Below are positions 6,001-15,000 of a stretch of DNA of 64,000 nt, piece after piece. The DNA lies in contig CH464491.1 in the NCBI GenBank assembly GCA_000002445.1, positions 4,928,001-4,992,000 on the forward strand, written 5' to 3'. Position numbers: made by a program. Every line of letters starts with the position of its first letter. The stretch's first letter is position 1. The DNA comes from Trypanosoma brucei (Eukaryota).

Positions 6001-9000
6001 CTGATGTTAACGGTGCGAGATTGGCCGCTTACATGGAGGTTGGTCGTCTGCGGGTTGGCTTATAATTAATGCATCAACTTTCCAAACTTGTACACAAAAT
6101 AACCTCTTCCCTTCTTGCCTCTGTTTTTTTGTCGCTACGCTTCTCTCTTTGTGTCAAACGCTATAAGCTCCCATATTTGCGTGCTATATCAGTGTTGAAA
6201 TATCTTCCCAGTTACCACTTTTGTCAGCACAAGTATTGTAACTAACATCGCAGTTTCTCGACCAAACGTCTGCGAAACTACAGGCGCTTTCCAGTTAGCT
6301 CCATCACCGCTTTTCTTCTCACTTAGCGATACTGTGGCATAGTTAAACCTAATCTTGCTTATAGTTGAGCTTAGTAGATTTGTTGAGGCTTTTTCATTGT
6401 TTTTCGGTGTACATTTTGGTGCTTCTTACCTTGGGTTTGTTGGTGAACTCTTTTTGGATGTTAAATTGTTTAATTGGGGATTTATTGTTTCTAAAGCTTT
6501 TATTCTGTCTGTCATACTGACTCAGTCCTTTTGTGTAGCGCATAAAGATAAATGCACAAAGAAATCACTCTATATATACTCATTTTGACACTACCCCTAG
6601 TTATTTTCAGATTTCTATTTACTTTTTTCATTCGTTCAAATATTAGAGTTTGACCATATGTAGCGTGAAACTGAGAACTGGATGTTGTTTCTAAGTTGGT
6701 GTTAATGTGTTAGCCCTCTGGCCATCTCTGTACGCAATAATTCTCCGCTTGTGGTTACGCCTTGTTTGCGCACATTATCTTAATAATTGTTATGATTTCT
6801 TTGATTTCTGTTTTATCGTGCACTTTTCTAGCATATGGTGCCCTGCCGGAAGCTATTGTGCATCTAGACGTATTTTTATTTTAATTGTCCCCTTTGTGTC
6901 CCCTTTACTTTAATAATAAGATTCTGTGGATGCCGCTGAAGTGGCCGCTGCTTATATTAGATTTTTCTGAATGTACTAATACCGCTGTAGAATGCTCTAC
7001 TATACTTGATGCCTTGATACTTCTTGCGGTTTCAGTATTAGGTAATTTATTATTGGGCTATTATATATATTGATTATCCTTTGAAAGACAAATGTCTCAC
7101 TTATTATAATATGTAAGTTATCATTTTCAATGGTCGTGCCTTTCACCTGTTCACCCTCTGAAAGGTTAGCTTTGTCATAGAAACCCATTGTGTCAATGAC
7201 GTAAATTTTGTTTTGCGACACTTTTCTACTTTATCTTTTAACCATATCGTTCCATATTAAATTCGGTAGAATATCTTTATATTTCTGGCAGTCCATGTGA
7301 CTCCGAAAGCAGTGCATATATTTCTATGCCTGAAAATTCAAAGCGTGTGTTCTTTATTGGTTCTACTTGGAGGAAGATCTTCATTACATGTTTCATAATC
7401 AAACATGTACCGTTGCTGTTCTGCACTGAGACGGTTCCTCTTCTGCATGTCCTTCCGATTGTTGCTTATTTTACATCACCAGATTATTTTGGCTCGAAAC
7501 TTGTTTGTAACTAGTAGGCTCCGTCCCTTTTCTTTTCTTTCATTTTGTGCTTCAACTCTGCGTAAGCAAGAACTCTTATATAATTTGTCCTTACTACGAA
7601 AACAAGAAATTTGGAAGCCGTATGTCAGTGTGAATTTTGCAGAGTTCTGCCGCTAATTCTCCACTCTTCACGAAGGTTATCTAATGGTTAATACGTGCTC
7701 TACTCCCTTGTAACGCCAGCCACCTCAACGTGGTGCCAGGGTCTAGTGCTCCGTCTCATCGGGGGAAGCCAAGAGCCAGCAGCGTTCCTCTTTTGGAACA
7801 CTGCTGTGCTCCGGCTACGGCATCATACAGCACAGGGATCAGCAGCGTCTTGCTGGGACACCGTTTTTCATTTGTCGGTCCCTGGGCACGTGCCAGCGTG
7901 TCATCAGCAGTATCATCCGCACTAAGATGCTGCTGTCCGGTGATATGGAAGAGAATCCCAGCCCGTCGTTGTGCGGGATGCAGTGGAACTGCGCCGGGCT
8001 ATCTCAAGGAAAGAGATTAGCACTCCACAAAACCCTTGTTGATGAGCGGATCGCCTTTTGTCTGTTGAGTGAGACAAGGATGACGCCTGGAGAGGCGGCT
8101 TGCTTTAGCGTTGCTGGCTACCAACATCACGGAATAGCTCGTAACTGCAAAGGAGGTGGTGTATCAATACTAGTGAGGGAGGACCTACCAGTCGAGACCG
8201 GTATAGCCGTTGTTGGTCACATTGAAAAAGTGCATGCAACAATTCACCTTGCACGTGAAACGGCGCTGACTGTCACGTCGGCATTTTTTTTTGAATTTTC
8301 TTCGTGCCTTCGTGAGAGTTTCCCCCCACTGGCGCGGCCATCAGCCATCACCGTAGAGCCCTGAGATGCTATCGGTCTGGCAACTGTGGCAGAGTCTCAC
8401 CTTTTTTATTCAGCCTAACACTCTCTATAATTTTTGTTGTAGCTCCGCAGTTGAACGGAACACAGCAGATGGGGCGACAAGCCTCCCACCCTAGACTCTC
8501 CCAAAGATGTCAATTAGCAATCCTTTTGTTTTGATTTTTGTTATTCGTTTATTATTCTCTTCCCCTCTTTCTGTTTTTGTTGCTTGTTGACTGCATACCC
8601 CTTCTGTCTCTGAGGGTGTCTGGACTATTCCTGCGGTTGGTGCTTTTCCTGCTAGCTCCACACTCGGCAATAAGGGGGGAAGTTGCAGAAGGGAGAGTGG
8701 GTTGTATGACTGTTACCTTAGGGGAGGACTTCACCTGCGGCTGGCTCCGTTCAACCGCAATGAGAAACTGCGCCAGCCTTTTGGAAAAACATATATCCTG
8801 CACAAACACACCTTCTACCGCAAACCTGACACGTAACTCCTTCAAACCGGGACAGCTCATCAAGTGCAGCGACGTTTCTTCGCAGTCGCCGCGTTGGCTG
8901 GTAACAGCGCGCTCTACCTTCATACCGTGCATCTTCTTTTGATGTAGGGTGAGGCCAGTTTTGTTAGCACACTGCCTTCCGCATGTCGGGTACACCAACA

Positions 9001-12000: not shown

Positions 12001-15000
12001 CAGATCCACTCGGTAGCAGTTTGATCGATCTCCGTAGCTCAGCAATCGTGATGGGACTGAACTCACTCGCTATCGTCTTTATGGGTGCCGGTGGGTGTGA
12101 GTCGGGGTGTCTTCTTGCGCGGGACGAGTACAGTTTAATGAACCTCTCAGCTTGACAGTAGTCCGTGATGGCCGCGTTATCAACAAGTACAGCCGGTGTG
12201 GTTAGTAGTCGTGGCGCATATACCTTCTTGACAATGTGCCAACTGCAGCGGTCTGACACCGCAAGTCTGGAGCATAGCGTGCTCCATCTCTTCTTTGTGG
12301 TACGGTCCAGTATCTGCTTACGCGTGGCTACCAACTTTTCCCTTCGGTGGGAGGGTCCGCATCCAGCGATCTCTTCATCGAGTTTCGCGAGCTCAGGTGT
12401 CCAATGTGATGGCGTTGCTCTGCAGCCACGGGGGACGGAGACCTTCGTCGCAATGCGGATGGCGGAGCTCAATTTCTGTTCCAGGGTGTTGACGGTTTTT
12501 TCTCTACCAATTTTCCCGCAGAGCTCGTCAACCTTGAGACGGAAATTCCTCCAGTTAGCTTTTAGCCATGCGTACATGGGCTTTCGAAGCCGCGGGCAAC
12601 TCAGTGCATCTGTGTCCTCTCCGACGATAACGTCGAAAAATATGTGATGGTGATCGCTATCGGGAGAATACAGCGATGTCCACGTGTCCACTGTGCAATT
12701 CCTTGACAGTGTCACATCAGGGGTGGACTCCCCGTGGTGGCGCGCGTACTTTGTGCACTCACCAGTGTTGCAGACCAGAAACTGGTTGTCAATGCACCAC
12801 TGTGTGAGGGTTTCACCCTTGGTATTTGGTGGGTTCGCGCGATCCCATGCCAACGCGTGTGCGTTAGCCTCTACACCGATGAGCTGGGCCCCGTCAGTCG
12901 TCAGAAGCGTATCTAGGTCAGTTGCCGTGAAGGTGTGTTTTGGTGGGATGTATGCCGACGTGACAGTCAGCGCCGTTCCACGTGCAAGGTGAATTGTTGC
13001 ATGCACTTGTTCAACTCCCCCCAACAACGGCCATACCGGTCTCGACTGGTAGGTCCTCCCTCACTAGTGTTGATACACCACCTCCTTTGCAGTTACGAGC
13101 TATTCCGTGATGTTGGTAGCCAGCAACGCTAAAGCAAGCCGCCTCTCCAGGCGTCATCCTTGTCTCACTCAACAGACAAAAGGCGATCCGCTCATCAACA
13201 AGGGTTTTGTGGAGTGCTAATCTCTTTCCTTGAGATAGCCCGGCGCAGTTCCACTGCATCCCGCGCAACGACGGGCCGGGATTCTCTTCCACATCACCGG
13301 ACAGCAGCATCTTAGTGCGGATGATACTGCTGATGGCACGCTGGCACGTGCCCAGGGACCGACAAATGAAAAACGGTGTCTCAGCAAGACGCTGCTGCTC
13401 CCTGTGCTGTATGATGCTGTAGCCGGAGCACAGCAGTGTTCCCCATGAAAGGAACGCTGCTGGCTCTTGGCTTCCCCCGATGATACGGGGTACTGGACCC
13501 TGGCACCACGTTGAGGTGGCCGGCATCGCCAGGGGGAACAGGTCATAGCATCCAACTACAAAACGGTTCGCAGCTGGCAGTTTCTGGCAGTAAAAACAGC
13601 CGATAACATAAGGAGGTCAGGCTTCAAAGCCCTAGTTGTTTATGGATTGCAGAAAAATAATATGGCGGCTGAATCGTACCAAAGAAACAGGCAACCGCTG
13701 GAAGCAGCTGCAAGGGCGCTGAGACAGCGGTCAGCAAACATGTCAACAGCCTTGCAAATTCAATTAATTACAGCAGTGACAAACTACGGCACGATTGCGG
13801 CCGGCACAACCGCCTACAACAGCGGCAGCAGCGGATCCTGCAAATACACCGGCATCAAGGCGCAAGCGACGCCAAAAGCATGCGAAGTAAATCAAGATGC
13901 GCTGCAAAAGATTAACAGCTACACAGTAGGCAAAGGCAAATTTAACCAACTTCAGTTGATTGACGACAGCTACCTGACGACACTAACATTAGACGCAATC
14001 GCAGGGACCAAGGTAAACCCAACAGCAAGCTCAAACACGTACACCCACGGGGACTGCCAACACGGCGAACCAACTGGCGTAAATTTCGCGGGCACTAACG
14101 CTCTAGGACTGAAAATAACAAAGCTAGGAACCGACCCGAAGATCACGAAAGCTACAATAACAAAATCGGGAGCTGACTGCCCAAACAAAGTGCAAACAAC
14201 GGCGACCAGCGCAGCCGAAAGACTTGCCTACCTTGTATGTGAAGCAGAAGAAGCCAAGCTGCCAGATGTGCAGAAGCTCTCTGAGCTAAAACTGGAAGAC
14301 ATATCCGGCAACGACGCCATTCTAGCGGCACTAAGTGCGATGCTACTACCAGGTAAAGGAGGATCGGACGCTTTCTCGGAACAACATAAGAGCGAACTTA
14401 AAAAAATAATAAACCATGTTTATGGCGCCGACAACCAAGCATTTCAAACAAACTACATAAAACCTCTTACGGAAGAGATAAAATTCAAATTTAATGGAAT
14501 CGACGTTGCGGGCACAGTCATTGACGTAACGGCCGGGACCCAAGGACCGTTGGCTATAGCTTACTACGCAGGAAAGAATATTCCCAAACGAAAATCAGAA
14601 ACCAGCCCACCATTGGTTGGTTCAAAGAAAGGAACCGAGTGTGAATTAATAGCAGACAAAGAGAAATACAAAACAGAAGATGGATGTGCGTTGAAGGGTG
14701 ATAAATGTGTAGAAGCAGAGGCAAAAGCGAATAAGAAGAAAGAGGAGAAATGTGCAGTAAAACAGCAAAAGGAGTGTGAAGATGGCTGCAAATTGGAAGA
14801 AAAAAGTGCAAGGATTCCAGTTTCCTCGTCAATAATAAATTAGCCCTCATGGTTTCTTTATTTGCGGCCTTGCTGTTTAATTTTTCTGGTACTTTAAGAA
14901 ACTATTTTCTCAATTTTATTAAATTTATGAACGTTTGATATTTTGAGGGAATTTTATAAATTTACTAAAATTTAATATATTATAATACTTTTTGAGAAAA

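Follow-up and report, generated by a model that had tools for sequence, protein, structure and literature searches.

The window analyzed here is a 64,000-nucleotide stretch of Trypanosoma brucei DNA (contig CH464491.1). A flank match to the table of ingi and RIME elements identifies it as chromosome 11 of strain TREU927, ~4,928,001–4,992,000, part of the published reference genome (PMC4660242 Suppl. 1). It is an array of variant surface glycoprotein (VSG) genes: Pfam searches detected Trypan_glycop or VSG_B domains in several open reading frames (ORFs), and VSG 3′ 16-mers and 70-bp-repeat cores are scattered across it. Within this array, a full-length copy of the retroelement ingi on the minus strand abuts, through its poly(A) tail, an inverted 5′ fragment of an older ingi. 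Both pieces are present in the TREU927 catalogue of ingi and RIME, the full copy at NT_165288 4,936,284–4,941,534 and the fragment as element 15–582 on strand p (plus) (PMC4660242 Suppl. 1). BLASTN of the element against the window detected no ingi sequence in the 64 kb beyond these two pieces. VSG orientation, 70-bp-repeat cores and 3′ 16-mers concordantly define three blocks: the part below 7.7 kb is minus, 13.5–44 kb is plus and the part above 47 kb is minus again; because block orientation flips from minus to plus across the ingi pair, the pair lies at a divergent strand switch. The anatomy of the pair was established directly and comprises the following features.

7705–8283, plus strand: 5′ fragment of an older ingi (nucleotides 1 to ~582, truncated on its 3′ side), 579 bp
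8284–13534, minus strand: full-length ingi copy, 5,251 bp
8284–8292, minus strand: A9 tail of the full copy, read directly (T9 on the plus strand)
8552–13526, minus strand: conceptual ORF of the full copy, 1,657 amino acids (start ATG 13526–13524, stop TAA 8552–8554)
9248–9319, minus strand: C2H2 finger of the full copy (Pfam zf-C2H2_4, 19.5 bits, below the curated cut-off of 27)
10058–10471, minus strand: RNase H of the full copy (Pfam RNase_H, amino acids 1019–1156, above cut-off)
10457–10459, minus strand: in-frame TGA (context GAATTG TGA ACTGATGGATCC; protein YEL-stop-TDGS)
11114–11839, minus strand: reverse transcriptase (RT) of the full copy (Pfam RVT_1, above cut-off)
~12641–12967, minus strand: endonuclease of the full copy (Pfam Exo_endo_phos_2, above cut-off)
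13016–13022, minus strand: frameshift patch GGGGGGA
13272–13295, minus strand: 2A motif DVEENPGP of the full copy
13458–13534, minus strand: Pr77 hallmark of the full copy (the internal promoter/ribozyme region in this element family), with CGTG at 13507–13510

The landmarks of Pr77 are CCACC at 16–20, TCAA at 21–24 and the downstream promoter element (DPE) CGTG at +25 to +28 (PMC4748587). Because the DPE must sit at +25 to +28, the first nucleotide of the full copy is 13534 rather than 13533. At the other end, the sequence ...CACGAAGGCACGAAGAAAATTC(A)9 is identical to the 3′ ends given for other ingi copies of TREU927 in PMC4660242 Suppl. 1. An Rfam scan of 6500–14500 returned no match to an HDV-like or any other RNA family.

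Three-frame translation revealed only two lesions in the ORF of the full copy, one +1 frameshift and one in-frame TGA. The frameshift patch differs by one extra base and four substitutions from the in-frame GGTCACA of the fragment (8217–8223; alignment columns 531–536). The TGA codon lies at the start of the RNase H domain, one residue ahead of the TDGS motif, and likely arose from TGG (Trp). Once one base is dropped and the TGA is read through, the translation is exactly 1,657 amino acids long; a potentially functional ingi measures 4,971 bp and 1,657 amino acids (PMC3447711). The full copy does not possess the uninterrupted 1,657-codon ORF of a coding-competent ingi, and because its frame is broken by the frameshift and the TGA, it is unable to encode its own transposition and is non-autonomous. 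It can reasonably be considered less degenerate than typical ingi copies. A homologue search with the conceptual protein, in protein collections that contain no trypanosome ingi, gave metagenomic LINE proteins of ~25% identity as best matches and no trypanosome entries.

The fragment abuts the A9 tail of the full copy in opposite orientation. BLASTN aligned it with the full copy at 95.5% identity over 573 nt (E = 0). Its Pr77 is kept, with CCACC present, the DPE CGTG at 7729–7732 and +1 at 7705. The start codon is absent, TAACGCC replacing GATGCC, and translation of 7942–7965 gives a mutated 2A motif, DMEENPSP. In total, 30 of the 583 alignment columns differ between the two pieces; 7709–7718 is one stretch with variants specific to the fragment. 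These differences are concentrated at the 5′ end, where 14 of the first 92 columns are affected versus 16 of the other 491, a clustering reached by 6 of 5,000 permutations; thus 7705–7796 diverges from 13443–13534 by 15%, compared with 3% over the remainder. Given the 30 differences, the lost start codon and the mutated 2A motif, the fragment and the full copy are independent copies, neither a recent duplicate nor the products of one recent event. The first ~9 nt are also variable in other TREU927 copies, which begin with the nonamers CCCTGGTAA, CCCTAGCAA and CCCTGCTAA (PMC4660242 Suppl. 1), and the variation hints at subfamilies with differing 5′ ends and no start codon. Gene conversion from arm to arm was considered as a source of the 5′-clustered mismatches and set aside as unneeded, since a subfamily difference is as likely in view of these variant first ~9 nt.

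The earlier note on this DNA had described a near full-length minus-strand ingi with an abutting inverted fragment at a divergent VSG strand switch, and an ORF of ~1657 amino acids carrying one frameshift and one in-frame TGA only. Our analysis confirms this description, with the coordinates corrected to those listed above; careful translation did not reveal many extra stops. The alignment that the note called for, of the fragment with the 5′ end of the full copy, was run and gave a match to the first ~582 nt at ~95% identity. The note was also right that the fragment stops at the ...LTVTSA codons, but it placed their equivalents in the full copy near 12940, and they are found at 12953–12970.

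A 145-codon ORF on the plus strand (7927–8364) runs from an internal ATG of the fragment through the T9 into the antisense of the 3′ untranslated region of the full copy, and is probably meaningless. Exact-protein look-ups with four ORFs of the window, including this junction ORF and one complete VSG, found no identical record.

Target sites at the three element ends

To score the junctions, we derived an empirical target-site matrix from the 100-nt upstream flanks of 5′-complete TREU927 elements (PMC4660242 Suppl. 1), comprising 88 flanks in 85 non-redundant families. Each flank was allowed to shift by as much as ±3 nt in an expectation-maximization (EM) fit, which absorbed the boundary noise of the table. 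Sites at the locus were scored at the exact spacing set by their junctions, and genuine flanks were scored leave-one-out. The consensus is TGGxGTxGGxT (11 positions, −14 to −4), after which come 12 nt with T or A as the first base; the signal is strongest for the G at −10 and the G at −7 (~1 bit each), and next for the G at −6 (0.6 bit). The target motif of Tbingi is reportedly called an 11-mer in a 2004 abstract by Bringaud. The derived pattern agrees with the literature on the ingi clade, in which a conserved motif precedes a 12-bp target-site duplication (TSD), the length typical of Tbingi (PMC3820030). The sites at the three ends, and the VSG pseudogenes on either side of the pair, are as follows.

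7679–7704, plus strand: insertion site of the older ingi (motif at −14 to −4, 7679–7689; expected 12-nt TSD ACGTGCTCTACT at 7693–7704)
8272–8283, minus strand: single retained TSD copy expected from an insertion event in the older ingi (TGCCGACGTGAC), immediately following the A9 tail
13535–13560, minus strand: canonical ingi insertion site in a VSG, at the 5′ end of the full copy (expected TSD ATGACCTGTTCC at 13535–13546; preceding motif TGTAGTTGGAT at −14 to −4, 13550–13560)
~4564–5895, minus strand: left VSG pseudogene, with one in-frame stop (5572–5574) and a 3′ 16-mer at 4376–4391
13539–14843, plus strand: right VSG pseudogene, without its ~first 60 codons, frame open up to the ingi boundary

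The 5′ flank of the full copy scored 9.3 bits, a value reached by 20 of the 126,948 window positions (0.016%) compared with 20% of held-out true flanks. At the tail junction, the target as rebuilt for the antisense of the older ingi (gttttggtgggatgta followed by TGCCGACGTGAC) scored 4.16 bits, which 0.7–0.8% of element or window positions reach versus 65% of held-out true flanks. The 5′ flank of the fragment scored 2.8 bits at the exact 12-nt spacing (1.4% of positions versus 71% of held-out true flanks). When six RHS-derived flanks were dropped, the scores were little changed, with the tail junction at 3.72 bits. Because of these motif scores at exact spacing, we read the three ends as products of endonuclease-dependent insertion. 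Judged from sequence, all three element ends look endonuclease-made, yet the two ends of the full copy appear to represent two different sites. The derived motif may also be used at other ingi and RIME copies to separate endonuclease-made from recombination-made junctions.

The score at the 5′ end of the full copy bears on one alternative, in which a single retrotransposition was accompanied by a large target-site deletion: target-primed reverse transcription (TPRT) would have started from a nick in the older ingi, and the cDNA would have been joined to a distant break in the VSG. Deletions accompanying LINE insertion are known for human L1, and this history invokes only two insertions and accounts for the tail junction. 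However, the 5′ junction sits exactly 12 nt downstream of a 9.3-bit motif, an arrangement expected at a first-strand nick site and not where cDNA was joined to some arbitrary remote break, and the element is complete to +1. We therefore consider this alternative highly improbable.

A search for a TSD among the four flanks, in every pairing and orientation, found none, the longest shared sequence being a 6-mer. Neither the 12-mer expected for the full copy (ATGACCTGTTCC, 13535–13546) nor that expected for the fragment (ACGTGCTCTACT, 7693–7704) is repeated anywhere else in the window. Among elements of the sister family L1Tc/NARTc, roughly one in two is without a TSD yet retains the upstream motif (PMC5814959). 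Because many genuine copies also lack a TSD, its absence does not exclude membership in Tbingi.

The flanks and the divergence between the two pieces together bear on a single aberrant retrotransposition as the source of both, either through an inversion resembling twin priming or through an RT switch from nascent sense nucleotide 582 onto another ingi RNA at its poly(A). The plus-strand order of sense 1–582, T9 and antisense 5242–1 is what such a template switch would output. However, twin priming inverts part of one element and does not duplicate 580 nt; 30 of 583 columns differ, with 15% divergence in the first 92 nt, and in the fragment the start codon is gone and the 2A motif mutated; and the outer flanks are unrelated (intergenic versus VSG interior), with no TSD. 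An origin in one event is scarcely credible on these grounds. Twin priming, fold-back duplication and single-event template switching were accordingly rejected on the anatomy and on the divergence between the copies.

A probable history of insertions and exchange, and its competitors

The earlier note had offered two explanations, insertion of an ingi into a pre-existing ingi or recombination between two copies. Neither alone fits, and both together do: there is no TSD, and both ends of the full copy lie at target-type sites. By the criterion that the note itself set, a simple nested insertion is refuted, as no TSD exists at 8283/8284 versus 13534/13535 or in any other pairing, and the other half of the older ingi is gone. 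The intact ingi-in-ingi nest is thus not what lies here; the host is kept only as nucleotides 1 to ~582, and a truncated VSG, in place of ingi nucleotides 571–5250, lies past the 5′ end of the insert. The note's further suggestion that retroelements target their own kind is unsupported as a special preference, because 43 other antisense positions in the element score as well as or better than the tail-junction site.

We consider it probable that ingi inserted here at least three times in separate events, once into the antisense of the older ingi, and that a homologous exchange between two ingi copies followed, so that the present full copy is chimeric. We infer its chimeric status because the target sites at its two ends do not match each other. 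The order of the events and the type of exchange proposed below are likewise inferred. In the first step, a canonical endonuclease site 1.8 kb upstream of the left VSG would have received the older ingi, in plus-strand orientation. In the second, TPRT would have placed an ingi here termed N in the antisense strand of that element, with the first-strand nick falling between GTA and TGCC at ~nucleotide 582; the A9 tail would abut the older ingi exactly at ~nucleotide 582 because the nick fell there. In the third, an ingi termed M, oriented like N, would have inserted at ~codon 60 of the right VSG, a very good site with the expected duplication ATGACCTGTTCC. In the fourth, homologous exchange between N and M would have joined the 5′ part of M to the 3′ part of N.

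The exchange may have been a deletion between direct repeats, an unequal or ectopic crossing-over, or a gene conversion with crossover. What was left of the older ingi (4.7 kb) would have been removed or displaced by it, as would the beginning of the VSG and the two partner duplications, while the chimera would have kept the full 1,657-codon frame; the frameshift and the TGA may have been acquired since or inherited. In the reciprocal product, ...GGTGGGATGTATGCCGACGTGAC would stand ahead of an ingi, or an ingi tail would lead into ATGACCTGTTCC and the ~first 60 VSG codons. ingi and RIME have been reported to recombine and thereby cause rearrangements (PMC2854126). The alignment of the right VSG pseudogene begins at ~amino acid 84 of the VSG at 41971–43455 (tblastn, E = 6e-12), and its missing N-terminal part was sought between 5.4 and 7.7 kb and was absent there.

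Several points weigh against this history. The intermediates and the reciprocal product have not been seen, and the TREU927 table contains no flank ending in ...GGGATGTATGCCGACGTGAC, although the table, being noisy, is ill suited to revealing such a match and would probably have merged it. The tail-junction score is moderate only, with 43 other antisense element positions equal or better. The matrix rests on BLAST results tabulated by others, whose boundaries carry noise of ±1 nt for which the EM offset was used, and the sequence of the older ingi upstream of the nick was approximated by that of the full copy. Finally, four events are needed, and a history of two insertions and one deletion is shorter.

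In that shorter history, an ingi would have inserted normally into the VSG, and a later non-homologous (end-joining) deletion would have taken out everything from ~nucleotide 583 of a neighbouring older ingi to the TSD/poly(A) boundary of the VSG-borne ingi. Besides its fewer events, it demands a canonical site at the 5′ flank, as is found, and CAT (3 nt) is common to both sides: the expected plus-strand 3′ TSD ends in ...GGTCAT before the T-run, and the fragment ends in ...GGCAT. However, 3 nt is little microhomology, and T. brucei usually relies on longer stretches when ends are joined by this route. Moreover, one breakpoint is forced exactly to the end of the poly(A) tail, and the other would have fallen by chance on a 4.16-bit target position (~0.8%, or 1.6% with 1-nt ambiguity). 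On balance, an end-joining deletion is unlikely.

The repeat content of the region raises the question of whether two ingi-containing sequences were mis-joined during assembly of a repeat-rich, gapped subtelomeric region. The window has three 100-N gaps and scattered Ns, and ingi is a 5-kb high-copy repeat. Nevertheless, the join lies outside the shared repeat, at a unique boundary between fragment nucleotide 582, the T9 and the ingi 3′ end; the fragment bears private substitutions; the interval 7000–15300 contains zero Ns; and a random mis-join would not place three ends on target-type sites at exact spacing. An assembly artefact is therefore quite unlikely.

The orientation blocks bear on a further possibility, that an inversion between oppositely oriented ingi copies flipped the plus-strand VSG block and thereby created the divergent switch. 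Consistent with this, the plus block (13.5–44 kb) is bounded by the divergent switch at the ingi pair and a convergent switch at 44–47 kb, and exchange between inverted ingi copies yields the same local structure. The reciprocal chimeric ingi is missing from the window, however, and the partner would have to lie outside it, which makes an inversion very unlikely. The specific form with a second breakpoint at the convergent switch at 44–47 kb is excluded, as BLASTN found no ingi sequence there.

The history that we favour, insertions followed by exchange between N and M, makes the structure an ordinary by-product of retroposon turnover in a VSG array, in a region already published and catalogued. 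Its significance is mainly bookkeeping: it would provide a worked example of TSD loss through recombination among the ingi copies of VSG arrays, and of the way in which these exchanges may truncate VSG genes and mark array boundaries.

The surrounding array and the facing promoters

The 1.8-kb interval 5896–7703, which separates the older ingi from the start of the left VSG, contains no 70-bp-repeat core. In this it differs from the regions upstream of the window's other VSGs; the 70-bp repeat normally found ahead of a VSG may have been lost or displaced here. Elsewhere, arrays of one to two 70-bp repeats are found at 15186–15295 (plus), 19667–19767 (plus), 51434–51534 (minus) and 55048–55210 (minus). 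These short arrays precede individual VSG cassettes and are oriented like the downstream VSG, which is typical array architecture. The convergent switch occupies ~43.8–47.7 kb and is free of ingi: the plus block ends with a last 70-bp-repeat core at 43766 and a 16-mer at 43549, and minus-strand ORFs begin at 47759. The three 100-N assembly gaps lie at 15362–15461, 29645–29744 and 49083–49182, and single Ns are at 48419, 48587, 48604, 48680, 48770, 48784 and 48831. The first gap falls within a long (ATA/TAA)n tract (15211–15708) beside 70-bp-repeat cores, where the reference is incompletely resolved.

The two Pr77 regions face each other across 5.8 kb, that of the fragment at 7705 pointing rightwards and that of the full copy at 13534 pointing leftwards, and the two arms share a 195-nt perfect stretch. 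By analogy, such an arrangement might act as a built-in trigger of RNA interference (RNAi) against ingi, serving as a source of small interfering RNAs (siRNAs), a speculative reading that we regard as unlikely. A functional analogue is Mu killer of maize, an inverted duplication that silences MuDR. Abundant ingi siRNAs in T. brucei come from both strands, and large inverted repeats are siRNA sources (PMC3447711; PMC4721609). A transcript from the fragment promoter would correspond to full-length antisense ingi. In read-through RNA from the full copy, the 5′ end would consist of sense nucleotides 1–582 and the 3′ end of the corresponding antisense; this RNA could fold back into a stem that includes the 195-nt perfect run. 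Either RNA would offer Dicer a substrate directed against the 5′ end of active ingi copies. The Pr77 of the fragment, with CCACC and CGTG kept, shows five changes among its first 14 nt; mutating this region of Pr77 can abolish promoter activity in L1Tc (PMC4748587). If this reading were true, it could help to explain why ingi siRNAs arise equally from both strands, and loci like this one would be candidate sources of antisense RNA feeding ingi silencing.

Comparison with known systems

The full copy resembles Tbingi of the ingi/L1Tc clade in its length of 5.25 kb, its Pr77 with CGTG at +25 to +28, its A-rich tail and the 11-mer motif upstream at 12-nt spacing. Similarly, it has a single 1,657-codon frame with a 2A motif, an apurinic/apyrimidinic (AP)-type endonuclease, RT, RNase H and C2H2 fingers. 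Unlike Tbingi, its frame is broken twice, making it non-autonomous, and it has no 12-bp TSD, its two ends belonging, on our reading, to different insertion sites.

As in L1 5′ inversions generated by twin priming, sense and antisense pieces of a LINE lie adjacent to each other. However, the inverted piece here lies past the poly(A), duplicates 580 nt, is divergent and is not bracketed by a TSD. The locus also resembles the siRNA-producing inverted repeats of T. brucei (PMC3447711) in being an inverted duplication of a transposon 5′ end that could fold back if transcribed, but its arms are 95% rather than ~100% identical and its loop spans 4.7 kb; the seven inverted repeats catalogued in that study do not include it.

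As in nested insertions of transposable elements, the younger tail abuts an internal position of an older element on the opposite strand at a target-type site. In contrast to such nests, only one half of the host is left and the duplication is single-copy, which would be accounted for if the nest was broken by a later exchange. Parallels are also offered by TSD-less ingi/RIME as well as L1Tc/NARTc copies described by Bringaud and co-workers (per PMC5814959), in which a complete element has kept its target motif and shows no duplication. Unlike in those copies, the 3′ partner site can be identified here as the antisense of another ingi, so that both putative parental sites of the chimera are visible.

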